Below are positions 36,156 to 57,494 of a stretch of DNA of 64,000 nucleotides, in pieces. A model generated the notes under the pieces. It had not been told where the DNA came from, did not search any database, and was given only the letters and a program-made list of their open reading frames with translations. Position numbers and translations under genes: made by a program. Within the stretch, counting starts at the first letter, position 1; every line of letters begins with the position of its first letter. Source of the stretch: an uncultured Nitrosomonadales bacterium (GTDB taxonomy: Bacteria > Pseudomonadota > Gammaproteobacteria > Burkholderiales > Gallionellaceae); assembly GCA_903892645.1 (NCBI GenBank), contig CAITJF010000152.1, positions 2,205 to 66,204 of the forward strand, written 5' to 3'.

Positions 36156-36158
36156 GAA

Positions 36159-37856: not shown

Positions 37857-37881
37857 TGGGCGCAAGTTGACCTAAGGCGTG

Positions 37882-37918
37882 CCAAAACGGTGGGAGGTTT
37901 TTTCTCCTGCCGTTTTGG
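37882..37918 (+). other. Stem-loop between subunit I and the heme O synthase gene
   Basis: Perfect 9-bp stem CCAAAACGG (37882-37890) / CCGTTTTGG (37910-37918), extended by a partial inner GGGAG/CTCC pairing. No trailing U-run follows. Confidence 0.4.
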
Positions 37919-37971
37919 AGTTAAAGGCACAAGGTGTGGATATTTCACGCCCAACCACTTGGGGTTTGTAT

Positions 37972-38829: not shown

Positions 38830-38837
38830 TTTTGCCG

Positions 38838-39686
38838 ATGCGTCTATGGCTGTTGCTGGGCCTGTTGGGGATGGCGGGAGCGGCGTTTGCCTCAGGGGGA
38901 AACGTTCAACCCGCAGCACCCGTTAAATTCGATCAAAAATCTGCATTGCAATTCAGTCAAAGTGTAGTCGGCCAGCAGATGGCCGACTATGCCTTGCTTG
39001 ACCGCAACGGTCAGGCAGTCAGGCTTTCCAGTTATCGCGGCAAGCCGGTGCTGGTGAGCTTTATTTATACCGGTTGTTCGGTAACCTGCCCCGCCACCAC
39101 ACAATATCTTGCCAAAGCGGTCAAATACATGCAGAACGCTCTTGGTGCTGACAGCTTCCAGGTGTTGACTGTCGGCTTCAATGCCCCTTGGGATTCGCCA
39201 CAGGCGATGCGCGATTTTGCTTCACGGCAAAATATCAAGTTGCCACACTGGGAGTTTCTGAGTGCAGATGCGGCAACCATGCAGAATTTCACGCGAGACC
39301 TCGGATTCAGCTACGCCTATTCGGTCACTGGTTTCGATCATATTTCCCAGCTCACCTTGCTTGACCAGGAAGGCAAGGTTTATCGCCAAATATACGGTGA
39401 TAATTTCGAGTTGCCTCAGATGGGTGAGCCGTTAAAAAAACTGGTGGGCAATGTGCAAACCCAGTATCCCGGTTGGGAGGGTTTGAGCAACCGCATTCGC
39501 TTGTTCTGTACCGTTTATGATCCCAGCACGGGATCCTATACCACCGATTATTCGTTTTTCTTCGGCATATTTATCAGCTTGGTGATGACTTATTACTTCG
39601 TCAAATGGATTGTCCGTGAATGGCGCCGCGCCCCACGCCGCAACCCTCCCAAAGCCAATGAGGCAGTTGAAATAAAACCATCCTAG
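38838..39686 (+). CDS. SCO1/SenC-family protein with C-terminal membrane helix
   Basis: The likely start is MRLWLLLGLLGMAGAAFA at 38838. It has the thioredoxin-like CSVTC (CxxxC) motif, a conserved His (FDHISQ) and the C-terminal TM FFFGIFISLVMTYYFV. Confidence 0.8.
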   Translation: MRLWLLLGLLGMAGAAFASGGNVQPAAPVKFDQKSALQFSQSVVGQQMADYALLDRNGQAVRLSSYRGKPVLVSFIYTGCSVTCPATTQYLAKAVKYMQNALGADSFQVLTVGFNAPWDSPQAMRDFASRQNIKLPHWEFLSADAATMQNFTRDLGFSYAYSVTGFDHISQLTLLDQEGKVYRQIYGDNFELPQMGEPLKKLVGNVQTQYPGWEGLSNRIRLFCTVYDPSTGSYTTDYSFFFGIFISLVMTYYFVKWIVREWRRAPRRNPPKANEAVEIKPS

Positions 39687-39785
39687 CCATGCCTGCGCTC
39701 AGTGCTGAGTTCAGTAGTTGTGTAATCACGATCATTTTGAGCGATGCCATGGTTTATGCCTGTGAAGTAGGCGGTAAAACAAAAA

Positions 39786-39814
39786 TTGCAACCAGGAAAA
39801 TCAGCTGTCATAAT
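39786..39814 (+). promoter_or_regulatory. Candidate sigma70 promoter for the second half of the cluster
   Basis: TTGCAA (39786-39791), a 17-nt spacer, then CATAAT (39809-39814), in the 177-bp AT-rich spacer after the SCO gene. Confidence 0.45.
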
Positions 39815-39863
39815 GCTAAAAGGTATATTATTAATACATCTTTTATAATATGATTAATATGGG

Positions 39864-41795: not shown

Positions 41796-42304
41796 GCCAG
41801 CCGCTGAAATACTTGGGGCAAGGGCTAGCCTACGCGCTGTTCGCCGTGGTGCTTGGTTATTTCTCCACTTCACCGGAGTACGCGCACTTGCCGGCGGATT
41901 CCGCGCTGCTTAAGCTGAGTTTCAACCACGCGGCCCAGCGAAAGAAACCGTGCCACGAGCGCACCGACGAGGAAATGGCCAAGCTGGCAAAAAATATGCG
42001 GATACGCAAGGATTGTCCGCGCGAACGCTCCGACGTGGTGGTGGAGTTGGAGATGGACGGCAAGCAGTTGTACCATGTCGTGCTGCACCCGCCCGGCCTG
42101 TCGCATGACGGTGCCGCTTCAATATATCGCCGCCTGCCGGTGCCGGCAGGCCCCCATCGTTTCGTGGCGCGCCTGAAGGATATGGAGGGGGGCGATTTCA
42201 GCTTTGTGCACGAGGAAAACATTACTCTTGGCGCCGGCAAGGTAATGGTGATTGATTTCAAGGCCGACGTTCCCGGCGCCCCCGGCTTTATGTTTAAGAG
42301 TTAG
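41792..42304 (+). CDS. Membrane-anchored hypothetical protein, translationally coupled to the preceding gene
   Basis: Its ATG overlaps the upstream TGA (ATGA at 41792-41795). It has an N-terminal TM (LAYALFAVVLGYF) and a ~130-aa soluble domain with two Cys. No family recognised. Confidence 0.6.
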   Translation: MSQPLKYLGQGLAYALFAVVLGYFSTSPEYAHLPADSALLKLSFNHAAQRKKPCHERTDEEMAKLAKNMRIRKDCPRERSDVVVELEMDGKQLYHVVLHPPGLSHDGAASIYRRLPVPAGPHRFVARLKDMEGGDFSFVHEENITLGAGKVMVIDFKADVPGAPGFMFKS

Positions 42305-42310
42305 GACAAC

Positions 42311-43717
42311 ATGACTATTCCCGTGGAAGCGAACTCTCCTTATGATGCGCCGCCGGATGTTGGCGGTGTGTATGCGTTGCCCACGCCGCATCAAGCCAGC
42401 CAGCGCTTGGCTGCCGGCTGGCTGTGGCTGAGTTTTGCCGCACTGGTGGGGGCAGGTTTTTTTGCTCTGCTGGTAGTGATGGCGCGTACACCTTATGTGT
42501 CCGATATTTTTCCCACGGTAGATTTTTTCCGTAGCGCCCTGGTGGTGCATGTGGATTTGTCGGTGCTATTGTGGTTCTTTGCTTTCGCCGGTGTGCTGTG
42601 GGGTGCAGCCTCCCCTCCAAAGTGGATGCCCCTCGGTTGGGTAGCGCTGTTGCTGGCGGTGGTAGGCGTGATAGTGGTTGTGGTTTCGCCGTTTGTCAGC
42701 ACCGGCGGGCCGCTCATGAATAACTATATTCCGGTGCTGGAAAACAGGGTGTTCCTTACCGGTTTGTTCCTGTTTGGTTGCGGTATCGGGTTGCTTGCCT
42801 TGCGTGGCCTGCTGACGATTCCCCTCACCGGGTTTGGTGCAAATAGAGATGGCGGCATACTTTGTTTCGGCCTTTATACTGCCGCAGTGGCGACGACGAT
42901 GGCGCTCATCGCATTTTCCTGGGCATTCGCAACCATTCCGTTTTTTGTGCGCGGTCTTCCTTATTACGAGGCGCTGTTTTGGGGTGGTGGGCATGTGATG
43001 CAATTCGCCTATACCCTGCTGATGTTGGTTGGCTGGTTGTGGCTGTCCTCTGAATGCGGTGCCCAGGTGCCATTAACTCCGCGCATATCACTGTTCCTGT
43101 TCGCCTTGGGGGTTGCACCGGTGCTGTTTACACCGCTGATCTACGCCCTTTATGAGACCAATACCGGCGATAACATGGGAATGTTCATCTGGATGATGAA
43201 AATCGGTGGCAGCCTGGCGGCTGTGCCGATTGGGCTGGCGGTAGCGTATGCAATGGGGAACCGTGGCTATCCTGACCCTTCGAAGCGTCCGCTGTTTGCT
43301 GCCTTGCTGTGTTCGATGGTTTTGTTTGCGGTGGGCGGTGGCATTAGCCTCATGATCAAGGATAGCAACACCATCATCACCGCGCATTATCATGGTACCG
43401 GGGGCGCTGTGAGCCTGGCTTTCATGGGGCTGGCTTTTGTGCTGCTGCCCAAGCTGGGGTTTCGTGCGCCTGATTTGAAGCTTGCCAGCTGGCAGCCTTA
43501 TGTGTACGGTATCGGGCAGTTGCTGCACATCATCGGGCTGCTGTGGTCGGGTGGGTACGGCGTGCAACGCAAGGTCGCTGGAGCAGCCCAGGAATTGCAC
43601 AGTTTCGGGCAGGTCGCCGGAATGGGATTGATGGGAATAGGCGGGTTAATCGCCGTGATCGGCGGCCTGATGTTTCTGGTGGTGGTGTTTCGTGCAATGA
43701 GGGGGCGAACACGTTAG
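42311..43717 (+). CDS. Heme-copper subunit-I-like 12-TM protein lacking two CuB histidines
   Basis: 468 aa. It retains H80 (VVHVDLSVLLWFF), H228 (WGGGHVMQF) and H359/H361 (AHYHGT). The HH position, 49/50 residues after H228, is I277-Y278 (codons 43139-43144). Confidence 0.75.
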   Translation: MTIPVEANSPYDAPPDVGGVYALPTPHQASQRLAAGWLWLSFAALVGAGFFALLVVMARTPYVSDIFPTVDFFRSALVVHVDLSVLLWFFAFAGVLWGAASPPKWMPLGWVALLLAVVGVIVVVVSPFVSTGGPLMNNYIPVLENRVFLTGLFLFGCGIGLLALRGLLTIPLTGFGANRDGGILCFGLYTAAVATTMALIAFSWAFATIPFFVRGLPYYEALFWGGGHVMQFAYTLLMLVGWLWLSSECGAQVPLTPRISLFLFALGVAPVLFTPLIYALYETNTGDNMGMFIWMMKIGGSLAAVPIGLAVAYAMGNRGYPDPSKRPLFAALLCSMVLFAVGGGISLMIKDSNTIITAHYHGTGGAVSLAFMGLAFVLLPKLGFRAPDLKLASWQPYVYGIGQLLHIIGLLWSGGYGVQRKVAGAAQELHSFGQVAGMGLMGIGGLIAVIGGLMFLVVVFRAMRGRTR

Positions 43718-43804
43718 CGCCGCAGGCGGCCATTACGCCACGCTTTTCGGCTTTGTAGCTCGTTACGACTTCTCTTATTTTGACAGCAACGTAGTTTGCA
43801 TAGA

Positions 43805-45382
43805 ATGCGCAAATATCTACAAAACTTGTTGCTGCGTCTGGAAAACGCATTCAATGCGCCGTTCGGTCAGGCATTGAATCCTTGGTACCACCTCGGCGCG
43901 ATCACCTTTTATCTGTTCTGGATCGTGGTGGTAAGCGGCGTTTATCTCTATATCTTTTACCGAACCGGGGTGGATGAAGCCTACCAGTCGGTCGAACGCC
44001 TTACCCATGATCAATGGTATGCCGGCGGCGTGATGCGCAGCCTGCACCGCTATGCTTCTGACGGCATCGTGGTGACGATGCTGCTGCATATGCTGCGCAA
44101 TTTTATTACCGGACGTTTCCACAGCTTCCGCTGGTTTTCCTGGGTGAGCGGGGTTTTTCTGATCTGGCTGGTTTACACTTGCGGCATCAACGGCTACTGG
44201 ATGGTGTGGGACAGGCTGGCGCAATTCATTGCCGTGGGCACTGCGGAATGGTTCGATTGGATGCCGCTGTTCAGCCAGCCGCTGGCGCGCAACTTTCTCG
44301 TGCAAGGCGATGTCAATGATCGCTTCTTTGCACTGCTGTCGTTTGCCCACATCACCATTCCGCTGGTATTGCTGCTGTTCATGTGGATACATACCAAGCG
44401 CATGAACCACGCCGAAACCAACCCTCCCCTGCGCCTTGCGGTCGGCACGCTGCTTATGCTGCTGGCGCTGTCGCTGGTCAAGCCGGCGCTAAGCCACGCA
44501 CATGCCGATCTGGCGCTGTTGCCTGATGTGATCCGACTTGACTGGTTTTATCTGGCGCCGTATCCGCTGCTTTATATCTGGTCGCCTGGCGCGGTGTGGG
44601 TGTTGGTTGGCGGGATTACCGCGCTGCTCCTATTGGTGCCGTGGTTATTCAGGCCGCGCACGCGCCCTGCGGTGGCGGAGGTGCATCTGGACAATTGCAA
44701 CGGTTGTGCACGTTGCGCTGCCGACTGTCCTTATTCGGCCATTGTGATGCATCCGCGCCAGGACGGCAGGCCGCACCAATTACAGCCAGTGGTAGATCCG
44801 GACTTGTGCGCAAGTTGCGGCATTTGCGTCGGTGCCTGTCCATCTTCCATGCCGTTCCGCAGTAACGAACTGGTGAGCGGTATCGAGTTGCCGGATCAGG
44901 AGTTGGCGACGCTACGTGCAGGTATTGATCGTACACTGGCGGTGTTGCACGGCGATGCGCGCGTTATGGTGTTTGGCTGCGATTGTGCCTACGATGTGCA
45001 TGCATTGCAGTCGGAGGGAGTGGCGGCGCTTTCGCTCCCCTGCATCGGCATGCTGCCACCAGCGTTTATTGACTACGTGCTGCGCGACGCACGTGTTGAT
45101 GGGGTGATGGTTGCCGGTTGCCGTGAAGGGGATTGCCAATACCGTCTTGGCATCCGCTGGACGGAGTTGCGCCTGGCACGCCAGCGAGTACCGCATTTGC
45201 GCCAGCGAGTGCCACTTCAGCGTATCGAGTTTTGTTGGGCCGGCATACAGGATGATGAGCGGGCACGCGCGGAACTCGGCACTCTGCGTGCGCGGGTGGC
45301 GCAACTGCCGCGAGAAATAATCATGGAAGAGGATTCGCGAGAGCATGAACGCCAGTCCGGTGACAAAAACCAACCTGATTAA
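43805..45382 (+). CDS. Fusion protein: cytochrome b-type membrane domain + 2x[4Fe-4S] ferredoxin + MvhD/FlpD-like domain
   Basis: The likely start is ATG 43805 (MRKYLQNLLLRLENAF, parallel to its paralogue); the track ORF starts at 43796. The N-terminal half is a paralogue of 39864..41795 with the same four His. Then come CNGCARCAADCP and CASCGICVGACP, then FGCDC...LPCIGML...VAGCREGDCQYRLG. Confidence 0.8.
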   Translation: MRKYLQNLLLRLENAFNAPFGQALNPWYHLGAITFYLFWIVVVSGVYLYIFYRTGVDEAYQSVERLTHDQWYAGGVMRSLHRYASDGIVVTMLLHMLRNFITGRFHSFRWFSWVSGVFLIWLVYTCGINGYWMVWDRLAQFIAVGTAEWFDWMPLFSQPLARNFLVQGDVNDRFFALLSFAHITIPLVLLLFMWIHTKRMNHAETNPPLRLAVGTLLMLLALSLVKPALSHAHADLALLPDVIRLDWFYLAPYPLLYIWSPGAVWVLVGGITALLLLVPWLFRPRTRPAVAEVHLDNCNGCARCAADCPYSAIVMHPRQDGRPHQLQPVVDPDLCASCGICVGACPSSMPFRSNELVSGIELPDQELATLRAGIDRTLAVLHGDARVMVFGCDCAYDVHALQSEGVAALSLPCIGMLPPAFIDYVLRDARVDGVMVAGCREGDCQYRLGIRWTELRLARQRVPHLRQRVPLQRIEFCWAGIQDDERARAELGTLRARVAQLPREIIMEEDSREHERQSGDKNQPD

Positions 45383-46299
45383 CGCCTGCGCAGCCGGTAG
45401 TTAAGTGACACCAGAATGAGCAGCAGGAATGCCGCTGTGGCGTTATGAAGCAGCACCAGAAAAAGCGGCAGGCTGTATGCCACGGCGCTGATTCCCAGAG
45501 CGACTTGCAGCGTGAGCGCGGCGATCAGCAGCATGCCGCTGCGCCGCAAATTTTCCCGGATCAGGCAGGCTCCTAACCAGGCAAGATAACAAAACACCAG
45601 CAGCGCGGAGAAACGGTGCGCCATGTGCAAAGTCTGCTGCGCAGCACCCGGAATGAAGTTGCCGCCCTGTGGCACTTTCAACACCTGAAAAGGATTGAAG
45701 TCCGCCAGTGATGCGTGCTGTAGCCATCCATCGCAGCCGGATGGACCGGTGCAGCTTAAGGCAGCGAAACTCGCACTGACCATGCCCCCCAGCGTTATTT
45801 GTACCACGAGCAGCCCCAACCCCAGTGATACCCACCTGCGCAAACGTGAAGAGGCAGCGTATCGAGGCACGTATCCGAGATGTAATCGCCACAGCAGCGC
45901 CAGCATTCCCAGGCCGCCGAGCAGGTTGCCGAGCGCAACCGCTGGCAGGTGTGCGTTGTGCGTCCATTTGCCGAGCACTGCAAGGAAAGCCGTTAGCCCC
46001 AATAATGCCAGCGCAGGCGGAAAATCACCGGGTGCCACGCGGCGGCGGCGCCAGGCGAGTGAGGTAATGGCAAGGGCGGTAAAACCCATGGTGCTCGCCG
46101 CAATGCGGTGAGTGGTATTTATCCAGTTCGGATGGGGAGGGGCAAGGCCAGCCAGATTGTGTCCATAACATGCAGGCCGGTCGGGGCAGCCCAACCCGGC
46201 GCCAGTCAGGCGCATGTGGGCACTTAGCAAGATGATTATCGCCATTAGTGCGAAGGTGAACAGCACCAAGCCGTGGAATACGCGATTACCGTCAGCCAT
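45379..46299 (-). CDS. ctaA: Heme A synthase (COX15/CtaA family)
   Basis: 306-aa polytopic protein with N-terminal LLSAHMRLTGAGLGCPDRPACYG and paired His-containing helices. Its stop overlaps the convergent gene's stop (TTAA at 45379-45382). Confidence 0.8.
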   Translation of the reverse strand: MADGNRVFHGLVLFTFALMAIIILLSAHMRLTGAGLGCPDRPACYGHNLAGLAPPHPNWINTTHRIAASTMGFTALAITSLAWRRRRVAPGDFPPALALLGLTAFLAVLGKWTHNAHLPAVALGNLLGGLGMLALLWRLHLGYVPRYAASSRLRRWVSLGLGLLVVQITLGGMVSASFAALSCTGPSGCDGWLQHASLADFNPFQVLKVPQGGNFIPGAAQQTLHMAHRFSALLVFCYLAWLGACLIRENLRRSGMLLIAALTLQVALGISAVAYSLPLFLVLLHNATAAFLLLILVSLNYRLRRR

Positions 46300-46336
46300 G
46301 TGACCTCAGAAGGCGAACCTTACCTGAATCTCTTTT

Positions 46337-46516
46337 TCAGGGATTAATGAAGGTAATTATTTGGGAGGTGGTTACCGCAAGAACCGAGATGATAACCAAA
46401 AAAACCAGGCTACGATATTTGAAGCGGCCACCGTAGGCGTTCTCGAGACGGTCAAGCAGCCAGTCTGATACGAAATAAAGACCAAGGGCGATCAGGGTGT
46501 AATAAAGGTAAGCCAT
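46337..46516 (-). CDS. 59-aa two-TM micro-protein upstream of ctaA (below ORF-track cutoff)
   Basis: Hand translation: MAYLYYTLIALGLYFVSDWLLDRLENAYGGRFKYRSLVFLVIISVLAVTTSQIITFINP. There is no clear Shine-Dalgarno, so coding status is uncertain. Confidence 0.3.
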   Translation of the reverse strand: MAYLYYTLIALGLYFVSDWLLDRLENAYGGRFKYRSLVFLVIISVLAVTTSQIITFINP

Positions 46517-46639
46517 GAATTATAAATGTCCGTCAGCACGTTATTATCTTCGACATCAAGATGGTTGCACAATATGGGCTGTTCTTATGTGCTTGGCGCA
46601 AGTTGCCGGGAGTGACTACCTGACCACACTAGGCCGCGC

Positions 46640-46680
46640 AAAAAAGACAATGGCGCACCGGGAAAAACCAGTAGTGCGCC
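46640..46680 (-). terminator. Rho-independent terminator after the cytochrome c gene
   Basis: The stem GGCGCAC (46652-46658) / GTGCGCC (46674-46680) is followed on the minus strand by ATTGTCTTTTTT. Confidence 0.55.
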
Positions 46681-46734
46681 ATGTGTCCAGTTATGCAGTT
46701 GCGAGAAACCGCTGCTGCATTGGTTCGTTCGTTA

Positions 46735-47049
46735 TTACAGCGAAAGAATCCAACCCACTGTGGACTTTATTTCAGCATCGGTCATCTTGCCTTTTTGCGC
46801 TGGCATTGGCATGGTGCCCCATACTCCGGAGCCGCCTTCTGTTACCTTTTTGATCAGCTTGGCTTCGGCAGTAGCGTCACCTTTGTATTTTGCGGCCACT
46901 TCCTTATATCCTGGCCCGACGAGTTTCATGTCCACTGCGTGGCAGTTCAGGCAGCCGGCTTTTTTGGCGAGGTCTTTCCCATCTTCGGCAAATGCCGGTG
47001 CGCTGAGGAAACAAGCGGTAATTCCTGCAATGATCAAAACTCTTTTCAT
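46735..47049 (-). CDS. Soluble class I cytochrome c (c551/c552-type)
   Basis: The likely start is MKRVLIIAGITACFLSAPAFA at 47049 with a GGAGA Shine-Dalgarno. Heme motif CLNCH and distal Met in WGTMPMP. Confidence 0.88.
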   Translation of the reverse strand: MKRVLIIAGITACFLSAPAFAEDGKDLAKKAGCLNCHAVDMKLVGPGYKEVAAKYKGDATAEAKLIKKVTEGGSGVWGTMPMPAQKGKMTDAEIKSTVGWILSL

Positions 47050-47144
47050 TTTATTTCTCCACGAGGTTAAAAAATCTGACGACAGTTGGTGAGATAGCCT
47101 AATTTCAGCCATAAGCATTTTGTGGCAAAACAACCATGTATTAC

Positions 47145-47158
47145 TTGATGTAAATCAA
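47145..47158 (-). promoter_or_regulatory. Perfect FNR box TTGAT-GTAA-ATCAA upstream of the cytochrome c gene
   Basis: TTGATGTAAATCAA. On the gene strand a -10-like CAAAAT (47122-47117) lies 22 nt downstream of the box. Confidence 0.65.
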
Positions 47159-47318
47159 ATTTCGACAGGTCAGCGCTACCGGTAACACTTGCTCTCGATG
47201 GTATGGGAGAGAAAAATGGCAAGGCGACAACCGCAACCAAAACAACTGGGTAAGGTAAGCAAGTTTCTCACCCATATGCTTTAACGAACGGTTCCGTTTT
47301 GCGTTGACAGTATGGCTG

Positions 47319-48053
47319 CTAGAGGAATTGCGGCGGCGGGCCGACGTAGGCTTGTAACCCAGGCAGATTATGAAGCTCCACCGATTTGTTGCGTATGTTA
47401 ATCAACCCGATCCCCTGGAAGTGTGACAGTGTGCGGCTGACCGTTTCCAGCTTCATCCCGAGATAGCTGCCGATTTCCTGGCGCGTCATGCGCAAATGGA
47501 ATGATGTGGGCGAGTAACCGCGTGTGGCAAAGCGCTGCGACAGGTTAAGCAGGAAGGCAGCCAAACGCTCTTCTGCGCGCATCGAGCCGAGCAGCAGCAT
47601 GATGCCTTGGTCACGCACGATCTCGCGGCTCAGGATGCGGTGCAGGTGGCGTTGCAGAGAGGGTAATTTGCGGCTGAGTTCCTCCAGTTGGCTAAAAGGG
47701 ATCTCGCATACCTCGCTGTCTTCCAAGGCGATCGCATCGCAGGTATGTGCATCGCTGCTGATGGCATCCAACCCGATGATTTCCCCTGCCATTTGGAAGC
47801 CGGTGACCTGTTCGCGGCCATCTTCGTGCAGCACTTGGGTCTTGAAAAAACCGGTACGGATGGCATATAGAGACTGGAATTTTGCGCCACTGCGGTATAA
47901 GTAATCGCCGCGCTGGTATGCGTGCTTCAGGCTGATTAAGTCATCCAGCTGCTCCAAGTCAGCCTCAGTGAGTTTCCTGGGCAGGCACAGCTCACGCAAG
48001 TTACAGCCGGAACAGGCGACTCTTAGCGGGGTTAGAGAGACGGATTTTTGCAC
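47319..48053 (-). CDS. fnr: FNR-type O2-sensing Crp/Fnr family regulator
   Basis: 244 aa. N-terminal Cys cluster ACSGCNLRELCLP plus an internal Cys. cNMP-like domain and the HTH recognition motif ETVSRTL (E--SR). Confidence 0.88.
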   Translation of the reverse strand: MQKSVSLTPLRVACSGCNLRELCLPRKLTEADLEQLDDLISLKHAYQRGDYLYRSGAKFQSLYAIRTGFFKTQVLHEDGREQVTGFQMAGEIIGLDAISSDAHTCDAIALEDSEVCEIPFSQLEELSRKLPSLQRHLHRILSREIVRDQGIMLLLGSMRAEERLAAFLLNLSQRFATRGYSPTSFHLRMTRQEIGSYLGMKLETVSRTLSHFQGIGLINIRNKSVELHNLPGLQAYVGPPPQFL

Positions 48054-48107
48054 GTTTTTCTTGAGTTAGGCAGCATAATTTTTATAGGCATAATTATGAC
48101 AGGGATT

Positions 48108-48121
48108 TTGACCTATATCAA
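48108..48121 (+). promoter_or_regulatory. FNR box TTGAC-CTAT-ATCAA in the fnr-hemN divergent spacer
   Basis: 9 of 10 consensus half-site positions match. CATAAT sits at 48143-48148, 21 nt after the box and about 30 nt before the hemN ATG. Confidence 0.65.
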
Positions 48122-48178
48122 ACGCACGCCATGGCTTGCTAGCATAATCCGATAACTTAGTGAGCCAGCAGAATTATC

Positions 48179-49582
48179 ATGTCCTCAAATATAAAAGCAT
48201 CATCCGAATTAGAAGTTGATCTGGAGTTAATCCGCAGGCTGGACAAGAACGGCCCGCGTTACACCTCCTATCCTACCGCCGACCGTTTTGTCGAGGCGTT
48301 CAATGCCGAAAGCTACCGCAATTGGGTGGCCAAGCGCGAGATTGGCGGTATCAACCGTCCGCTGTCGTTGTATGTGCACATTCCATTCTGCAATACACTG
48401 TGCTTTTACTGCGCCTGCAACAAGGTGATCACCAAAGATCGCAGCAGGGCGGAAGATTATGTCCGCTACCTGATCAAGGAGCTGGCCATGCAGGCTGCCT
48501 TGCTGGGCGATGGGCAGCGCGTTGAACAGTTGCATTGGGGTGGCGGCACCCCAACCTTTCTGAGCGACGACCTGATGCGCGAATTAATGGGTGCTACCCG
48601 AAAGCATTTCAAGCTGGTGGAAAATGGTGAGTATTCCATTGAAATAGACCCGCGCAAAGTCAGCGACCAGACCATCATCCTGCTTGGCGAATTGGGCTTC
48701 AATCGTATCAGCATCGGTGTGCAGGACTTTGATCCGTTGGTGCAGCGCGCGGTAAATCGTATCCAAAGTGAGGCAGAAACGCTGCAGGTGATCCGCGCGG
48801 CGCGTGCCAACGGCTTCAAGTCGGTTAGTCTCGATCTCATTTATGGGTTGCCCAAGCAGACCCTGACGGGCTTTAAAGCCACTCTGGAGAAGGTGATTGC
48901 CGCCAATCCGGATCGCCTGTCCATCTACAACTATGCGCACATGCCCACCATTTTCAAGCCGCAGCGCCGTATCCACGAGGAAGACTTGCCCTCGCCGCAG
49001 GTCAAGCTGGATATTCTCAGCCTCGCGGTCAAGACGCTGACTGATGCCGGTTATGTGTATATCGGCATGGATCACTTTGCCAAGCCAGATGATGAGTTGG
49101 CGATAGCGCAGCGCCAAGGCAGGCTGCACCGCAATTTCCAGGGCTATTCCACGCATTCCGACTGTGACCTGGTGGCGATAGGGGTGAGTTCCATCGGCAA
49201 GATCGGCCCTACCTACAGCCAGAATTTCCGTGAGCTGGAAGATTACTACGACGCGCTTGACCGTGACGAATTGCCCATCATGCGCGGCATGGAACTGAAT
49301 TCAGACGACCTGGTGCGTCGCGCCATCATCCAGGCCCTGATGTGCCATTTCGAGCTTTCCAAGGAATCTTTCAACATCGCCTACCTCATCGACTTTGATC
49401 GCTACTTCGCCACCGAACTCGGTGAGCTGAAGGAATACGAGCGCGAAGGGCTGCTCAAGCTCACGCCGGAGTGGATCAGCGTCACGCCAAAGGGGCGCAT
49501 GCTAATCCGCAATATCTGCATGGTGTTCGACAAATATCTGCGCACGAGACAGGAACATGCACGCTATTCCAAGGTCATATAG
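48179..49582 (+). CDS. hemN: Oxygen-independent coproporphyrinogen III oxidase (radical SAM)
   Basis: 467 aa. HIPFCNTLCFYCAC (CxxxCxxC) and GGGTPTFL motifs. Confidence 0.93.
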   Translation: MSSNIKASSELEVDLELIRRLDKNGPRYTSYPTADRFVEAFNAESYRNWVAKREIGGINRPLSLYVHIPFCNTLCFYCACNKVITKDRSRAEDYVRYLIKELAMQAALLGDGQRVEQLHWGGGTPTFLSDDLMRELMGATRKHFKLVENGEYSIEIDPRKVSDQTIILLGELGFNRISIGVQDFDPLVQRAVNRIQSEAETLQVIRAARANGFKSVSLDLIYGLPKQTLTGFKATLEKVIAANPDRLSIYNYAHMPTIFKPQRRIHEEDLPSPQVKLDILSLAVKTLTDAGYVYIGMDHFAKPDDELAIAQRQGRLHRNFQGYSTHSDCDLVAIGVSSIGKIGPTYSQNFRELEDYYDALDRDELPIMRGMELNSDDLVRRAIIQALMCHFELSKESFNIAYLIDFDRYFATELGELKEYEREGLLKLTPEWISVTPKGRMLIRNICMVFDKYLRTRQEHARYSKVI

Positions 49583-49600
49583 CGGCATGATTCGCAAGGG

Positions 49601-50851
49601 ATGGTAATGAAATGCGTAGATGATTTTCGCTTGCGCTTAGGCAAGCAGGAACTGGTGCCGATTATGGTCGGCGGGATGGGCGTAGATATATCGACCGCCG
49701 ATCTTGCGTTGGAGATTGCCCGCCTAGGCGGTGTAGGCCACATTTCCGACGCAATGTTGCCTACTGTTACAGATCGGCGCTACGACACCGATTTCGTTAA
49801 AAACAAACTCCAGCAGTACAAATACAACCTCGACAACTCCGATAAATCTGCAGTGAAATTCGATCTCGGCCAGGTTGCCGAGGCCACGCGTTTGCACGTG
49901 AGCCATGCCATGCAATCCAAGCGCGGAGAGGGCATGATTTTCATCAACTGCATGGAAAAGCTTACCATGAATGCGCCACGCGAGACGCTTACCGTGCGCT
50001 TGCGCACCGCACTGGATGCCGGTATAGACGGCATTACGCTGGCCGCCGGACTGCATCTGGGTTCGTTCGCGATGATAGAAGACCACCCGCGTTTTCGCGA
50101 TGCCAAGCTTGGCATCATCGTCTCCTCGCTACGTGCGTTGCAGCTGTTCCTGCGCAAAAACGCCAGAACCAGCCGTCTGCCGGATTTTATCGTGGTGGAA
50201 GGCCCGCTTGCAGGTGGCCATTTGGGTTTTGGTATGGACTGGGCAAAATACGATCTGCGTACCATCGTGAACGAGATTTACCTGTATCTGCAAGCCGAGC
50301 ATCTGGATATTCCAGTCATCCCCGCAGGAGGGATTTTTACCGGCAGCGACGCTGTATCTTTTCTCGAGGAAGGTGCTGCGGCAGTGCAAGTGGCGACGCG
50401 CTTTACCGTGGCGCACGAATGCGGCTTGCCGCAGGACGTGATGCAGGAATATTTCAAGGCCGGTGAAGACGATATCGTGGTTAACACCATCTCGCCCACC
50501 GGTTACCCGATGCGTATGTTGAAAAACACCCCGGCCATCGGTTCGGGCATCCGCCCCGGTTGCGAATCCTACGGCTACCTGCTCGATGCCAACGGCAACT
50601 GCTCCTACATTGATGCGTATAACCGCGAGGTCGCGGCGCACCCGGACGCAAAGACAATTTCCGTGATGGATAAGACCTGTCTGTGTACTCACATGCGCAA
50701 CTATAAGTGCTGGACCTGCGGGCACTACACCTACCGATTAAAGGACACCACACGCCGCTTGCCAGACGGTAGCTATCAGGTTCTCAGTGCGGAACAAGTG
50801 TTTCATGACTACCAGTTCAGTGCTGACAATAAAATTGCTTTGCCTGATTAG
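49601..50851 (+). CDS. Nitronate monooxygenase/NPD-like FMN oxidoreductase with Cys-rich C-terminal extension
   Basis: 416 aa. TIM-barrel NPD-like motifs (PIMVGGMGVDIS, VVEGPLAGGHLG, IPAGGI). The extra C-terminus has CLCTHMRNYKCWTCGH. The start may be ATG 49607. Confidence 0.7.
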   Translation: MVMKCVDDFRLRLGKQELVPIMVGGMGVDISTADLALEIARLGGVGHISDAMLPTVTDRRYDTDFVKNKLQQYKYNLDNSDKSAVKFDLGQVAEATRLHVSHAMQSKRGEGMIFINCMEKLTMNAPRETLTVRLRTALDAGIDGITLAAGLHLGSFAMIEDHPRFRDAKLGIIVSSLRALQLFLRKNARTSRLPDFIVVEGPLAGGHLGFGMDWAKYDLRTIVNEIYLYLQAEHLDIPVIPAGGIFTGSDAVSFLEEGAAAVQVATRFTVAHECGLPQDVMQEYFKAGEDDIVVNTISPTGYPMRMLKNTPAIGSGIRPGCESYGYLLDANGNCSYIDAYNREVAAHPDAKTISVMDKTCLCTHMRNYKCWTCGHYTYRLKDTTRRLPDGSYQVLSAEQVFHDYQFSADNKIALPD

Positions 50852-50985
50852 TCTCATACCTTACATGCACTCACGGTAAATCCGTAGCGTGTAAGTGTTT
50901 CGCCCGAGTTATCTAACATCTCACTAGCCTTCAGCAGGTTTTGGCTTCGTTTATAATCGCCCCATCACTTTCAAGAGGTGGCGCC

Positions 50986-53016
50986 ATGAATAAATTCCTC
51001 AAATATGGCTTATTGGGCGCAGGTGGCATTGGCGTGTTGGCGGCGGCAGGTGTGGCTTATATTGCCGCGACATTCAATCCCAACGACTATAAGGCACAGA
51101 TCATCCAGGTCGTGAAGGACAAAAAGCAGCGCACCCTCAAGCTGGATGGCGACATCAAGCTGACTTTCTTTCCCGGCATAGGCGCCAACATCGGCAAGAT
51201 TTCCCTCTCCGAATTCAAGAGCGAAAAAGAATTCGTTGCAATTGAGGGTGCCCATGTTTCGCTGGCACTGCTACCGCTGTTTTCCAGGCAGGTGGTGGTG
51301 GACGAGGTGGTGGTCAGCGGCCTGAAGGCCACGCTGGTGAAACTTAAAGACGGCAAGACCAATATTGAGGACCTGCTGGGCAAGGAGGGGGGCAAGGCCG
51401 GAATCAAGGCTGAAGATACGCAGATGAAATTCGACATCGCTTCGGTGCGCGTGGAAAAAGCCGGGTTGACTTATCACGATGAAACCAGCGGTGCACAGTA
51501 TGCGCTGAAAGACATCAACCTCAAAACCAGTCGTGTCGCTAATGGCGTACCGTGCAAGATTGATTTCGCGGCGGTGATCCAGTCTAGCCAGCCCAAGCTG
51601 GACATCATTACACAACTGAAGACCACGCTCACTTTCGATTTTGGAAAGCTAATCTACCGTCTGGAAGGGCTGGATTTGCAGGCTAAAGGTGTGGCACCAG
51701 GCATTGATAATCTTGCGGCCAGTCTTGCGCTTCCCATGCTGGAAGGCAATGCAAAATCGTTCAAGGCCAGTATGTTGACGCTGGGATTGGACATGAAGCA
51801 ACCAGAGCAGGCGTTCAAGGTGAAGCTCTCATCTCCTGTGAATGGCAACCTTGAAATACCGCAATTCAATCTGTCCGATCTCACGGTCGCGGTAAATGCC
51901 ACAGGCGACAAACTGCCGAACAAATCGGTCAGCAGCGAGATGAAGGGTAGCGTGCAGGTGGATGCCGGGCGGGAGAGCGTGCAGATCAATCTTGCGGGAG
52001 GCTTGTTGCAAAGCCAGGTAAAGGCCAGAGTGGCGTTGAATAGCTTTTCCAACCCGGTTGTCCGTTTTGATGTGGACGTAGATCAGTTCGATGCCGACCT
52101 GTATCTGCCGAAGAAATCCGAAAATGGTTCTGCCAAGGTTAATGCCGCAGCATCGGAGCAACCGCTGGATCTTTCCGCTTTGAGAAGACTCAATCTGGAT
52201 GGCAGTTTGCGCATCGGTACCCTCAAGGCTGCCAATATAAAATCGTCGCAGCTGCGCCTCGGCATGAAGGCACACAATGGAGTGCTCGACATCAATCCGC
52301 TGTCCGCTAATCTGTATCAGGGCAGTATGAGTGGCAGCGTTACGGTTAATGCCGTACCAGTCAAGCCCAGCTTCGCCATCAACGAAAATCTCAGTGGCAT
52401 TAACATCGCGTCGTTGCTCAAGGATGCCGCCAATTTTGATACGCTGGAAGGCAAGGGCAATGTGTCGCTCAACCTCAACACGCAGGGCGGCACTGTGACT
52501 GCGCTCAAGCAGGCACTTAACGGCAGCATGGCGCTAAGCTTGGCCGATGGCGCGGTCAAGGGCATCAACATCGCCAAAAAATTGCGCGATGCGAAAGACC
52601 TGTTTGGCAAAGGCGGTGTGGCACAGACTCATGCGGCCAACAAGGACGAGAAGACCGACTTCAGCGAGCTTAAGGCCAGCTTCAAGGTGAACAGCGGCGT
52701 GGCGCACAACGACGATCTCTCGCTGAAATCGCCGCTGCTGCGCTTGTCCGGCAATGGCGACATCAACATCGGCAACGACAGCATCAACTATCTGGCCAAG
52801 GCCACGCTGGCAACCACGCTGCAAGGCCAGGGCGGCAGGGACAATGTCGGCGGCATCACCGTGCCGGTGCGATTGAGCGGGCCATTCACCGACCTCAAAT
52901 ACACACTGGATTTCGGCGCGATGGTATCCGACGCGGTGAAGCAGAAGGTTCAAACAGAGGTCAAGACCAAGCTGCAAGACCAGCTCAAAGAAGGCATGAA
53001 GGGGTTGTTCAAATAA
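50986..53016 (+). CDS. AsmA-family outer-membrane assembly protein
   Basis: The likely start is MNKFLKYGLLGAGGIGVLAAAG (TM anchor) at 50986. It has a long beta-rich body and the AsmA-like C-terminal block VPVRLSGPFTDLKY. Confidence 0.7.
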   Translation: MNKFLKYGLLGAGGIGVLAAAGVAYIAATFNPNDYKAQIIQVVKDKKQRTLKLDGDIKLTFFPGIGANIGKISLSEFKSEKEFVAIEGAHVSLALLPLFSRQVVVDEVVVSGLKATLVKLKDGKTNIEDLLGKEGGKAGIKAEDTQMKFDIASVRVEKAGLTYHDETSGAQYALKDINLKTSRVANGVPCKIDFAAVIQSSQPKLDIITQLKTTLTFDFGKLIYRLEGLDLQAKGVAPGIDNLAASLALPMLEGNAKSFKASMLTLGLDMKQPEQAFKVKLSSPVNGNLEIPQFNLSDLTVAVNATGDKLPNKSVSSEMKGSVQVDAGRESVQINLAGGLLQSQVKARVALNSFSNPVVRFDVDVDQFDADLYLPKKSENGSAKVNAAASEQPLDLSALRRLNLDGSLRIGTLKAANIKSSQLRLGMKAHNGVLDINPLSANLYQGSMSGSVTVNAVPVKPSFAINENLSGINIASLLKDAANFDTLEGKGNVSLNLNTQGGTVTALKQALNGSMALSLADGAVKGINIAKKLRDAKDLFGKGGVAQTHAANKDEKTDFSELKASFKVNSGVAHNDDLSLKSPLLRLSGNGDINIGNDSINYLAKATLATTLQGQGGRDNVGGITVPVRLSGPFTDLKYTLDFGAMVSDAVKQKVQTEVKTKLQDQLKEGMKGLFK

Positions 53017-53024
53017 ACACCGCA

Positions 53025-53046
53025 GGGGCGCGATTAATCGCGCCCC
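53025..53046 (+). terminator. 22-nt perfect palindrome after asmA (possible terminator)
   Basis: GGGGCGCGATTAATCGCGCCCC. No U-run follows, so terminator function is uncertain. Confidence 0.35.
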
Positions 53047-53062
53047 ACAGAACAATTCATCT

Positions 53063-53629
53063 ATGAGTAATTTTGCAACGTGCCTCATTCGCTGGCAACG
53101 CCAGTATGGCCGCCACGGCTTGCCGTGGCAGGGTGCGGATGCCTACTGTGTGTGGCTGTCCTAGATCATGTTGCAGCAGACCCAGGTCGCCACCGTCATC
53201 CCTTATTACCAGCGCTTCGTAACAAGTTTCCCGGATATTGCCGCGCTCGCAGCGGCGAGCGAGGACGACGTGCTGGCGCACTGGAGCGGGCTGGGCTACT
53301 ACTCGCGTGCGCGCAATCTGCACCGTGCGGCGCAGCTCATCATGCAGCGGCATGACGGAAAATTTCCATATCACTTCGACGATATCCTCGCACTGCCCGG
53401 CATAGGCCGTTCCACCGCCGCCGCCATCAGCGCCTTGGTGTTCCATGAGCGGCGCGCGATTCTCGATGGCAACGTCAAACGCGTACTGGCGCGCTACCGC
53501 GCCATCGAAGGTTACACTGGCGAGAAAAAAACTGAGGCGCAACTCTGGCAACAGGCGGAAGCGTTGTTGCCAGTGCGCGACGTGGCGACTTACACGCAAG
53601 GCCTGATGGACTTGGGCGCGTTGCTCTGA
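53063..53629 (+). pseudogene. mutY: A/G-specific adenine glycosylase MutY, inactivated (in-frame amber plus 3' truncation)
   Basis: The frame from ATG 53063 reads ...GLPWQGADAYCVWLS-TAG(53162-53164)-IMLQQTQVATVIPYY... The canonical motif is WLSEIMLQQTQV. Homology ends at ...QGLMDLGALL-stop, before the Fe-S loop and the C-terminal domain. Confidence 0.8.
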
Positions 53630-54316
53630 TGTCAGGCTGGAAACCCGAGAGCCATCCAGAAGACCTGCTTCATCCGGGAGTTCACAATGATAAACCGCAG
53701 TTGCCAGCACTTCTGGCAATCCCCATTCCATCAGCAAGGTAGAGGCCAATTCACGGTGGTCGGTATCAAAGGCTTCCCGCTCTAACGCTAGCTGTTTATG
53801 AATCTCGTTATCCGATGTGGAAATAATTTCACCATAGCGCTCGGGAAAGATGGAGGCTAGAGCCAATTCCCCAACGCTGCATAACAGTCCGGCAGTAAAG
53901 TTTTCTTCAGGAGTAATCTGGGCATAATGAGCCAGTGCCTGTGCTGAAATGGCGGCTGCCAAGGCGCGTGACCAGAATCGCTTATAGTCAAATTGAGGAC
54001 AGTTGCCGCTACGATGATTATGCAACACAGAGAGGGCGAGAACGAGAACGCGCACCCGAAGAGTGCCAAGTGTGGTGACGGCTTTCGAAAGCGAGACAAT
54101 GGGACGGTTATGGCCGTAGGAAGCAGCATTGGAAAACTTCAGTAGATCCCCCGCAATTGCCGGATCGGACTGTACCAAGCGAACTAGATCGTCGATTTTG
54201 TAATCGTCACACTGCAGTAGCTTGGCGATAGCCAAGCCTACGCCCTTAGGGGAGGGCAACTGCCCCGAGGCCTTGAGTTGCTTGTAAAGTGCTGGATCAA
54301 CCAACTGCACAATCAC
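53630..54316 (-). CDS. HDOD-domain protein, 3' end replaced (ORF runs on antisense through mutY to 53057)
   Basis: The first ~228 codons are HDOD-like (LPSPKGVGLAIAKLL...DDLVRLVQSDPAIAGDLLKFSNAASYG...SLSKAVTTLG). The remaining ~190 codons of the track ORF are the reverse complement of mutY and are not credible coding sequence. Confidence 0.6.
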
Positions 54317-54599
54317 TCTCCTTCTGGAGCGTACATCAGTGGCTCCTTCGAATGCTACATGTCGAGGGGGTCTATTTCAGCGACGACTCCAACACCTGGC
54401 TACCTTCTCAAAGTATTGAGTTAGCCCGGTACGGATTAATTTTGATCGTCAGTCACCATCATAATGAGAATCGTCATGACCATCGCTGTCTTACCCCTAA
54501 ACAAAAACTCATCAGGGAGAAGCTACTCCTGTTTTTGGTTAATTCATATATGCCAAAAGGCCTATATATTTTGACGTAGGGGGAAGAGAGAGGTTTGTG

Positions 54600-54947
54600 T
54601 CAGTGTTTGTCTGACAGGATGCAGGTATCCGGCAGGGGTCGCTTTCCGCCCACCGGCGGATGAATGTCATTTTTGGATAGAGCTAAGCAGGTGGATTTCG
54701 CGGCATACCGGTCAGATGGAAGGTACGCTTCCGCAATTACTTGGGCCGGTAAGAAGCAATCGTCCTGCCTTCTGTATCTACAACCAGCCAGGATTCTTCC
54801 CCTTGGCGAGCCGGAATGTCGGACTTTCTGCCTAATTTGATAGCAGGGATGCCGTTGACGAATAAGATGAACATGATTTTCTCCATTGAGTGAGTGCATC
54901 CAGATTACCGCTTTAAAATGGAATTGCATGAGAGGATAAGATGGCAA
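54600..54947 (-). pseudogene. Decayed HUH/Y1 (IS200/RAYT-like) transposase remnant
   Basis: The translation contains NGENHVHLIRQ (the MxNHxHLL HUH block), then GRILAGCRYRRQ (similar to GhLfqgRYk) and NDIHPPVGG (similar to RYIhxNPV). Spacing is shortened and the sequence is degenerate. Confidence 0.4.
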
Positions 54948-54977
54948 AAAGGGTAGTATTTCTGCACTGGAAAAATT

Positions 54978-55250
54978 ATGGGGATCGCCATAAAAAGACT
55001 GAAAAATGAAGCGGCATTGTTTAAAGAAGCGTTACTCGCAGGGGTGAAGTATGCGGAGGGGCGAGGCGTAGTCGAGTTTGAAGCAACTGATTCGGCGAGC
55101 AAGAAAATTTTATATATCTACAGGCGGCTGGCCCACGATAAAGTCATTCAGCTATTGCCGGAAGATCGGGTTGCCGAAAAATCCTTGCGGCACAAACTTG
55201 CAATCTGGTATTCAAAACAATTGCCCATGGACCATTCGCTTTTAAAGTAA
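54978..55250 (+). CDS. Hypothetical protein (weak)
   Basis: 90-aa ORF in the AT-richer patch. No motif recognised. Confidence 0.25.
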   Translation: MGIAIKRLKNEAALFKEALLAGVKYAEGRGVVEFEATDSASKKILYIYRRLAHDKVIQLLPEDRVAEKSLRHKLAIWYSKQLPMDHSLLK

Positions 55251-55405
55251 AAGAGTCGCCCAGTTGATCTTGCCGATACACACGTGCCACGGGTTTATTT
55301 CATGCTGCAAAAGGCTCAGCCTGGAATGGATCTGGCGATGAATGGTAAACTTTGGCCTAGGTAGCGATATCCATGAGTGCATGGTGTTTCAACGAATAGG
55401 TAGAT

Positions 55406-55921
55406 TTGTACATGAAAGCAATTTTTCTGGTTTTTTTCTGGGCATCAGCAATATCTGTAACTGCATTTGCGAGTACACCAGGCGAGGTTGAGGTCGGTGG
55501 CTATCTTCGCGAGGCGACGTTACATGGGTTTTCCGGTAATTCAAAAAGGTTCTCCGACTACCGTGGGAAACCCTTGGTCATTAACGTTTGGGCCAGTTGG
55601 TGTGCCCCCTGCCGGGCAGAAATGGGTTCGCTGGAGCGGCTTTACCGCCGGTATGGTGGAAAGCAATTCAATGTTATCGGCATCTCAACCGACGACGATG
55701 GCAGCGCAGCCGCAGCATTTATCAAGAAATCAAAGATTACGTTTGTTAACTATCTTGATAGCAAGGTGTTCCTGGAAAACATGTTGGGAGCCAATATGAT
55801 TCCATTGACCATTCTGGTGGATGCCAACGGTCGCGTGGTTGAGAAAGTTCATGGGGCTCATGAATGGGATAGCCCGGAATTTATTGAGGCGATAGGAAAA
55901 ACGTTTCACATAAAGATGTAA
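55406..55921 (+). CDS. TlpA/ResA-like periplasmic thiol:disulfide oxidoreductase
   Basis: Signal peptide plus the thioredoxin motif WASWCAPC. Confidence 0.85.
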   Translation: MYMKAIFLVFFWASAISVTAFASTPGEVEVGGYLREATLHGFSGNSKRFSDYRGKPLVINVWASWCAPCRAEMGSLERLYRRYGGKQFNVIGISTDDDGSAAAAFIKKSKITFVNYLDSKVFLENMLGANMIPLTILVDANGRVVEKVHGAHEWDSPEFIEAIGKTFHIKM

Positions 55922-55984
55922 CATTAAGCCAGCAGCGCACCACCCTAGTGTAGTGTCTTGCAATCACCTTTGCTTTCCGCAAGG

Positions 55985-56104
55985 CCGTTCGTGCTGAGCC
56001 TGTTCTGAGCATGTCGAAGTGGTATGAATGGCAACCACTTGGCAAGCCGCCTTTGGGTTGCTTAGTGGGATGGCTAGTCGTTTTATCAGGCTCAGGCCGA
56101 ACGG
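55985..56104. repeat. MITE/REP-like element with 18-bp terminal inverted repeats
   Basis: CCGTTCGTGCTGAGCCTG (55985-56002) against CAGGCTCAGGCCGAACGG (56087-56104), 16 of 18 complementary. It lies in the convergent spacer between the tlpA-like and pseudouridine synthase genes. Confidence 0.6.
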
Positions 56105-56133
56105 GTATGCGAAGCCATTTACGAGGCACTGCA

Positions 56134-56865
56134 CTAGAATTTTTCATCCTCGCGCAGGTAACGCCACTGTCCGGTCGGCAAGTCGCCCAGCTTGACCTTG
56201 CCGATACGCACGCGCTTTAACCCGGTGACTTTCAGCCCGACCAGTTCGCACATGCGGCGGATCTGGCGTTTCTTTCCTTCGTGCAAGATAAAATGCAACT
56301 GGTCGTCATTCTGCCAGCTTACTTTGGCGGGTTTGAGCGCTTCGCCGTCCAGCTTCAGGCCGAGGTTCAACATTTGTAAACCGTTGCCCGCAATCTTGCC
56401 TTGTATGCGCACCAGGTATTCCTTGTCGATGGCGGAATCTTCGCCGATGAGTTGTTTGGCGATGCGGCCATCCTGAGTCAGCACCAGCAAGCCCTGCGAA
56501 TCAATATCCAGGCGGCCTGCTGGGGCGAGGCCTTTCAAATGCGCCGGGCTGAAACGCAGCGGTGATTGATCACTGGCAAAGTGTGAAGCCGCGTTGATCA
56601 GGGTGACGGCGGGCTTGTGGTTATCCTCCGCCTGCCCGGAAACATAGCCGATGGGCTTGTTCAGCAGGATGGTCACACGCGTGTGTTGCTGGGTTTGTGC
56701 GGCACGATTCAGGGTGATGCGCTGCGCGGGGTCAATCCTGATGCCCAGTTCGGTGACCGGTTTGCCATCTACCAGCACCCAACCGCGTTCGATATAGCTA
56801 TCCGCCTCGCGGCGGGAGCACAGGCCTTGTTCAGACATCAGCTTGGAGAGGCGGATTTTTTCCAT
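56134..56865 (-). CDS. rRNA pseudouridine synthase, RsuA/RluB/RluF family
   Basis: N-terminal S4 domain ([30 protein letters not shown]) and catalytic block [17 protein letters not shown]. Confidence 0.88.
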
Positions 56866-57494
56866 TAGTGAGGTGGATGGATACCATCGTTTGGTTTAAT
56901 TGCAGCAAGTCCTTCTTCGGCGAGCGCAGTACGGAGCTCTTCCAGTCTGGCATGAAAGTCCGCCGCTTCGCCATAATCCAGAAAGCGGGCGTAGCGCGAG
57001 TGGGAACCGAGAACCTTGCGCGCATGTTTGATTGGGCAGAAAAACTGTTCGGTTCGCGCTGTGATCTCACGGGCGTAGCCAAGCAGCCCATTGGCATACG
57101 AGCAATAGATGCAGTGGAATTTTTCAAAGATATTGAGATATGCCAGGTGCTGGTGATCAATCACGATGTAATTCGATCGTCTGGCCTTGGGGATACCGTA
57201 AATCGGGAAGCAGGTCACCTGATAAAGCGTGACACAGCAGTCCAGAAAAACCAATGGGATGATCATACCGTAGATGATGGGCGCGGTGAGCAGCTGCTGC
57301 GGGCGCACAGTAAGGAACCAGCGGAAAATCCCCATCTTTAGCCGGAGATGCGTTTCCCTGATGGAGCGTTCGAATTCGACGCGCTTGCCTTCGATTTGGT
57401 ACAGGAAACGGCCCTCCTGTTCATGGAGAGCCGTCCGCAGTTCATCTTCGAGCGAGGTTATTTGGTTCAGGATATGGCGAATCCGCTCATTCAT
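56865..57494 (-). CDS. Hypothetical membrane protein with Cys/His motifs
   Basis: 209 aa. N-terminal coiled-coil, two hydrophobic helices, then [10 protein letters not shown]...FFCPIKHA. No family recognised. Confidence 0.5.

Follow-up and report, generated by a model that had tools for sequence, protein, structure and literature searches.

A doubly disabled mutY pseudogene, truncated together with a convergent HDOD-REC-GGDEF gene, in an uncultured Gallionellaceae genome

Introduction

In an uncultured Nitrosomonadales bacterium of the family Gallionellaceae, the gene mutY is interrupted by an amber codon and ends well short of its usual length, raising the question of whether this lineage still possesses a working MutY and, if it does not, how the gene was lost. 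The locus lies in a stretch of 64,000 nucleotides of contig CAITJF010000152.1 (assembly GCA_903892645.1), hereafter referred to as the window. An earlier note on this DNA, made from the letters alone, claimed that mutY had been knocked out by an amber codon at the catalytic glutamate and by the loss of its 3' half, and expected a G:C>T:A mutator phenotype as the consequence.

MutY proteins are defined by a set of motifs comprising a catalytic Glu, an Asp and an Asn, four Cys, and a C-terminal H-x-FSH motif (PMC11078426). The catalytic role of the Glu is attributed to E37 in Escherichia coli and to E43 in G. stearothermophilus in two sources (bioRxiv 10.64898/2026.01.22.701053; PMC11078426). 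In this work, the remnant and its surroundings were compared with the corresponding loci of relatives, and the rest of the assembly, a metagenome-assembled genome (MAG) of 2.68 Mb in 268 contigs with 99.99% completeness and 3.47% contamination, was searched for a replacement. Our results indicate that mutY is a real, doubly disabled pseudogene and the sole copy of the gene in this near-complete genome.

Results

The mutY remnant and its amber codon

The left part of the locus comprises the following features, given in window coordinates:

50941..53016, forward strand: asmA-family gene, upstream neighbour of mutY (PF05170 AsmA at 2.6e-63)
53063..53629, forward strand: mutY pseudogene, codons 1-188 of about 345 (TIGR01084, identity with mutY of relative G004, alignment with E. 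coli MutY)
53162..53164, forward strand: amber codon TAG in the slot of the catalytic Glu codon (E37, E. coli numbering)

Read from the ATG at 53063 on the forward strand, the frame encodes MSNFATCLIRWQRQYGRHGLPWQGADAYCVWLS, is interrupted by TAG (53162-53164) directly after the residues YCVWLS, resumes with IMLQQTQVATVIPYY and runs to TQGLMDLGALL before a TGA (53627-53629). A profile search of the genome matched the fragment to TIGR01084 (mutY) at E = 1.4e-79 over profile positions 2-203; taken as a 188-aa protein, it covered positions 2-188 with 265 bits. With 265-267 bits against a TIGR01084 cut-off of 286.5, it does not reach the level set for a whole MutY protein, and it obtained 258.8 bits for NF008132, whose cut-off is 427. 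A protein search with the read-through fragment returned, as one of its two best matches, the intact MutY P0061 (359.6 bits for TIGR01084, 412.7 for NF008132), encoded on ENA contig ERZ27279563 k141_2632727 (L138), which also carries the HDOD-REC-GGDEF protein P0183.

The HhH-GPD fold is still encoded, though interrupted by the stop (PF00730 at 7e-22, PF00633 at 3e-5), and in an alignment with the catalytic-domain structures of E. coli MutY (1MUY/1KG2) the fragment covered residues 4-191 (E = 5.5e-61). In this alignment, residue 34 of the fragment, the TAG, falls on E37, the position to which the earlier note had assigned it, while the last residue, L188, falls on I191, which precedes the first cluster cysteine. 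The catalytic Asp and the supporting Asn are retained in ILDGNVKRV, which is aligned with ILDGNVKRV of E. coli; these residues are D138 in E. coli and D144/N146 in G. stearothermophilus. The catalytic Glu codon is absent, TAG standing where relatives have GAG, and none of the four Cys ligands of the Fe-S cluster (C-x6-C-x2-C-x5-C) is present (0/4), the fragment ending at the residue preceding the first of them. In relatives, this Cys loop is what comes next after the breakpoint (CTRNKPQCILCPLQKNC in L138). Furthermore, PF14815, the C-terminal NUDIX-like 8-oxoG-recognition domain, had no match at the mutY locus, and the C-terminal motif FTHTFTHF of relatives (G004, L138/P0061) is missing from the fragment. 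Each lesion removes features that define a working MutY, namely the catalytic Glu in one case and the Fe-S cysteines, linker and C-terminal domain in the other, and the gene is indeed knocked out, as had been claimed.

Intact mutY genes of close relatives allowed the amber change to be traced. The mutY of G004, from the same genus, encodes an intact protein of 345 aa containing CVWLSEIMLQQ and is 91.8% identical to the fragment in nucleotide sequence over the length of the fragment; at the TAG position it has GAG, so that the nucleotide alignment shows a single G>T difference. WLSEIMLQQ is common to G001, G002, G003 and P0061/L138, and the codon thus encodes Glu in all these relatives, which bears out the proposed change from GAG to TAG. 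A mutY scoring above the family cut-off was present in 28 of the 30 relatives searched, and the genomes of the other two, which gave no match, are 68% and 81% complete; because the gene is near-universal in the clade and both exceptions are incomplete genomes, a clean mutY null in a near-complete genome stands out. The pairing of asmA with mutY is conserved: the same-genus genomes have it, as do most of the other loci examined from Gallionellaceae and related betaproteobacteria.

One deletion between convergent genes

To the right of the last mutY base, the window contains:

53628..53629, no strand: deletion junction, with G 53628 as the last base of mutY and A 53629 as the first of the convergent gene
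53630..54316, reverse strand: 5' remnant of an HDOD-REC-GGDEF gene, 229 codons, HDOD only (PF08668 at 5e-45, profile positions 1-192 of 196)
53057..53629, reverse strand: continuation of the truncated HDOD ORF, antisense to the mutY remnant and about 190 codons long
54737..54874, reverse strand: 45-aa ORF between the HDOD gene and the DUF5062 gene, predicted at the corresponding place both in the ENA contig and in L138
54978..55250, forward strand: DUF5062 gene, native right-hand neighbour (PF16691 at 3e-33)

The unbroken arrangement is found in L138, where the gene order is asmA', mutY (345 aa, forward), HDOD-REC-GGDEF (634 aa, reverse), the 45-aa ORF (without a Pfam match in the window), DUF5062, redoxin, RluF-like, cNMP-binding and ThiF, which is the window's own order; DUF5062 lies downstream of the mutY slot in G001 and G004 as well. 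By blastn, window 52835-53628 corresponds to L138 1-801 and window 53628-55252 to L138 2519-4133. The part missing from the window, L138 802-2518, amounts to 1717 nt, of which 472 nt come from mutY, 23 nt from the spacer and 1222 nt from the convergent gene; the codons lost are 189-345 of mutY and 228-634 of the HDOD-REC-GGDEF gene (L138 numbering). Identity between the HDOD remnant and P0183 (634 aa) is 86% over residues 1-227 of the latter, and the homology of the remnant to other HDOD proteins ends sharply at residue 229. The REC and GGDEF domains, which occupy residues 313-633 of P0183 (TIGR00254, 172.7 bits) and lie wholly within the deleted stretch, are absent from it.

Nucleotide homology of the mutY side to G003, G004 and L138 stops at 53619-53628. 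Microhomology at the breakpoints is at most 1 nt, and neither flanking repeats nor transposon ends were found at the junction. The earlier claim that homology ends before the Fe-S cysteines and the C-terminal domain is upheld by the end at 53628, one residue before the first Cys; the stop placed there stands in another light, as the closing TGA is not an old mutY codon, having arisen at the junction from the TG of a Cys codon and an A from the other side. On the alignment with L138, the loss of the mutY 3' half is thus one clean deletion of about 1.7 kb between convergent genes.

An insertion of the HDOD piece into mutY as foreign DNA had first been suspected because G003 and G004 have an unrelated gene after mutY, and G001 an island; this was rejected, L138 showing that the HDOD-REC-GGDEF gene is the native neighbour. 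An apparent continuation of HDOD homology for 30 residues into antisense mutY was rejected as a weak alignment tail.

Together, the HDOD remnant and the antisense mutY frame form a chimeric ORF of 417-419 aa. The same antisense frame is open over the intact mutY of G004 (a 206-aa ORF), which makes the chimeric ORF a by-product of composition and no evidence for a new gene; expression of the 417-aa chimera, in which an antisense-mutY tail follows the HDOD domain, as a new protein is a rather remote possibility. It does constitute an annotation pitfall, since gene callers chose the 417-aa antisense chimera and left the mutY pseudogene unflagged.

Variation around the locus

The slot between mutY and DUF5062 varies within the genus (window 53629-54977; L024 4540-5521; L126, G001:C3 about 399100-412600). 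It holds the HDOD-REC-GGDEF gene in L138 and the window, a 1-kb EEP (endonuclease/exonuclease/phosphatase) gene in G003/G004, and in G001 an island of 13.5 kb, which carries type I restriction-modification genes together with Fic and a transposase fusion of DruA/Tn5-like type. The EEP cassette of G003/G004 also occurs on contig C105 of the bacterium's own assembly (L129; 2658-3634, 3745-3795 and 13440-13515), between acnA and an integrase-bearing element of about 9.7 kb that has 51-nt direct repeats at its bounds and is located at tRNA-Val(CAC); in G002, acnA and the tRNA fragment are merely 78 nt apart. Contig C105 may belong to a co-binned relative, and a linked translocation of the EEP cassette to it was considered and set aside as not needed for the explanation.

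Two further elements were observed in the window. At 54541-54632, a promoter-like AATTCATATATGCCAAAAGGCCTATATATTTTG is followed by the palindrome TGTCAG-TGTTTGT-CTGACA; this stretch had no Rfam family match, its promoter-like part has 87-96% matches in seven related genomes, and exact copies of the palindrome are present on at least three further contigs of the own genome, with copies at 1-2 mismatches on two more. In addition, a 209-aa ORF with predicted membrane segments (56865-57494, reverse strand) lies between the RluF-like and cNMP-binding genes; it had no Pfam match and is absent from that place in L138, G004 and G001.

Search for a second copy and other repair genes

An intact paralogue elsewhere in the genome had been named as the main way in which the knock-out could be refuted. 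Searches with TIGR01084 and PF14815 revealed neither a second mutY nor a MutY C-terminal domain in the 99.99%-complete assembly, and tblastn with the full-length G004 MutY returned only the window fragment and Nth. The remaining TIGR01084/PF14815 matches were Nth (endonuclease III, contig C30), a Nudix protein (C230), a histidine kinase and a ferredoxin. Contig C230, with its PF14815 match and weak TIGR01084 matches, was rejected as the place of the mutY 3' half, the gene there encoding a 326-aa MutT-ThiE-type Nudix protein (NF006530, 399 bits), the sole PF14815 match above cut-off in the genome; the weak matches on C104 and C91 were rejected as mutY, corresponding to the histidine kinase and the ferredoxin. 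This genome has intact Fpg (C220), MutS and MutL as well as an intact MutT-type Nudix hydrolase, and family-1 ung is absent from it and from nearly all relatives.

Regarding suppression of the amber codon, TAG closes 292 of the 1431 long ORFs of the genome, and no tRNA with anticodon CTA was found in it, hence no amber-suppressor tRNA; the interval 52500-56500 yielded neither tRNA genes nor Rfam families.

Mutational footprint and timing

Substitutions were polarised over the 17.7 kb (window 35828-53572) shared by the window, G004, G003 and G001. The G:C>T:A class accounts for 56/726 changes on the own branch (7.7%) vs 7.4% and 7.5% in the sister species G004 and G003, respectively, and no predicted G:C>T:A mutator footprint is detectable on the own lineage in this four-genome comparison. 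It follows that the loss of mutY is recent relative to the species-level branch, or that its effect is small or undetectable. The state of the 564-nt remnant is likewise in keeping with a recent loss: it has no frameshift and no stop besides the amber, and its 18 own-branch substitutions comprise 10 synonymous changes and 8 that are not, the amber being the only G:C>T:A among them. The amber is a G:C>T:A transversion, as had been pointed out, yet this class is weak evidence and at most suggestive on the order of the lesions, because it includes 17 of the 65 substitutions by which the fragment could acquire a nonsense codon.

Other features of the substitution pattern were also observed. The own branch is longer than that of G004 (726 vs 435 changes), and G:C>A:T exceeds A:T>G:C on it by 393 vs 177 (G004, 189 vs 140; G003, 243 vs 212), an imbalance equivalent to a net GC loss of about 1.3%. 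The lack of family-1 ung does not explain this excess, because the gene is absent from nearly all relatives too.

Independent records of the locus

Window 52611-53635, which contains the TAG and extends 7 nt beyond the junction, is matched at 100% identity by the Logan contig L035 (run ERR4194647). The amber codon is documented by the MAG contig and this Logan contig, both of which may come from one sample. The exact junction-spanning 417-aa ORF is recorded for three contigs, two of which measure 68,929 nt and 7,647 nt (the latter in ERZ1426593). These records speak for the junction only and not for the amber, since the antisense frame reads Leu from CTA and CTC alike. For a Logan bridging product that had been guessed (53606-54055), no record was found. 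No intact same-species mutY allele more than 93% identical was found among 5.8 billion proteins, and no record exists of the 188-aa fragment in an amber-free form; in the 90% protein cluster of the fragment, the other member is a more distant 414-aa MutY.

Within the assembly, 32 contig pairs overlap at 80-97% identity, for a total of 29 kb and many of them at contig ends (for instance C105/C20 in acnA, and C152/C18). The bin is accordingly stitched from closely related co-occurring lineages, or from recombinant segments. These overlaps imply that related lineages co-occur, so that an intact mutY might exist in a minority strain.

Alternative explanations

The locus could be an assembly artefact, in which the contig is chimeric or 1.7 kb was skipped at 53628, the TAG is a consensus error and mutY is in fact normal. 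We regard this as very improbable. The MAG is fragmented (268 contigs) and derives from a mixed population, which speaks for such errors, and L035 stops just 7 nt beyond the junction; however, the sequence to the right of the junction is exactly that which follows mutY in L138, with order and orientation unchanged, which a random chimera would not yield, and breakpoints sharing at most one nucleotide offer no repeated k-mer on which a (de Bruijn) assembler could jump. Moreover, the junction ORF on three contigs, together with an L035 that holds both the junction k-mers and the TAG, argues against an error of one assembly; the 3' half of mutY is nowhere in the bin, and it is unlikely that errors would produce two independent lesions in a single gene. 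If the null allele is accepted as real, it may still be unfixed, the assembler having reported one haplotype (a mutator sub-lineage) that lives beside cells with an intact mutY. The contig-end overlaps between co-occurring lineages fit this reading, as does a lineage that has accumulated no G:C>T:A excess, the pattern that a young or transient allele should leave; transience is frequent among mutator alleles. Nevertheless, we consider it unlikely, as the 68.9-kb contig runs unbroken through the junction with no alternative mutY 3' contig binned, the protein records contain neither an intact allele above the 93% level nor an amber-free 188-aa form, and the identical junction recurs on three contigs.

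MutY function might also have been kept, either by amber read-through combined with a truncated 'clusterless' enzyme, or by an unrelated glycosylase acting on A:8-oxoG. The lack of a G:C>T:A excess on the lineage would agree with retained function, and clusterless MutY enzymes do exist; these enzymes, though, retain the C-terminal domain that is deleted here (PMC12631127). TAG is a normal stop in this genome, which has no CTA-anticodon tRNA, and Nth was the only other HhH-GPD gene found. Altogether, retained function is hardly credible.

Discussion

The question raised by this locus can thus be answered as follows: mutY is very probably a genuine and recently inactivated pseudogene, the only copy in the genome, that carries two independent lesions, an amber codon and a deletion of about 1.7 kb. 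The lesions, the architecture of the deletion and the absence of a second copy are observed directly; the loss would be recent, and the null allele is presumably fixed in the population.

In the explanation that we favour, a G>T transversion turned the GAG of the catalytic Glu into the amber TAG, and one deletion joined mutY tail to tail with the convergent gene. From MutY, the deletion took all four Fe-S cysteines as well as the linker and the 8-oxoG-recognition domain of NUDIX-like type; lost with them were the 23-nt spacer and, from the neighbouring protein, the domains REC and GGDEF. Neither remnant can encode a working protein of its original type. An A mispaired with 8-oxoG would no longer be removed and a raised G:C>T:A rate would be expected, which the intact Fpg and MutT-type Nudix hydrolase would probably buffer only in part. 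By analogy with bacteria in which mutY has been knocked out, the cell should therefore show raised G:C>T:A mutation; the summary of the GO system on which this expectation from other bacteria draws is given in PMC551534.

A more far-reaching reading is that a free-living Gallionellaceae population has been caught as a natural MutY-null mutator soon after the loss, with the amber as the first footprint of the defect caused by the deletion. We offer this only tentatively and consider it rather doubtful. If it were true, metagenomic time series would let the rise, persistence or purging of a wild mutator lineage be watched. If the null allele dominates the population, it would represent a G:C>T:A mutator under iron-cycling, oxidant-rich conditions, and its persistence would show, as a test set by nature, for what length of time such lineages survive outside the laboratory. 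The lost c-di-GMP signalling gene may matter as much to the cell as the lost repair. Pseudogenes of repair genes are a well-known type of event, and natural loss of mutY is known from Prochlorococcus MED4 (PMC551534); the present locus adds another instance.

Comparison with known systems places the remnant more precisely. With E. coli MutY, it shares the helix-hairpin-helix and the D-G-N catalytic Asp motif, whereas it has a stop at E37 and is without everything from C192 onwards, that is, the Fe-S loop, the linker and the C-terminal domain. The intact genes of G004 and L138 (P0061) have the same upstream asmA, and L138 also the same downstream gene order, but they possess the GAG, the Cys loop and the FTHTFTHF motif, all of which are missing from the window. 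Mutator alleles of mutY occur in Pseudomonas aeruginosa and Neisseria isolates, and reportedly also arose in the E. coli long-term evolution experiment, where mutation rates and spectra are said to have been measured. These experimental and clinical mutators resemble our case in that a single-copy mutY is inactivated by simple point mutations or deletions; they differ in that rates were measured there, while the window represents an uncultured population known by its sequence.

The clusterless MutY enzymes (MutYX, PMC12631127) are likewise MutY-type proteins without the four Fe-S cysteines, but they are full-length and active, with the catalytic Glu and a domain for OG recognition at their C-terminal end, neither of which the remnant has. 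Finally, Prochlorococcus MED4 (PMC551534) is also a free-living bacterium that has lost MutY and kept other GO-system genes; its gene is wholly absent from a reduced, AT-rich genome, whereas the window, with no shift towards G:C>T:A, presents what would be a fresh loss in which the mutY remnant is still recognisable.
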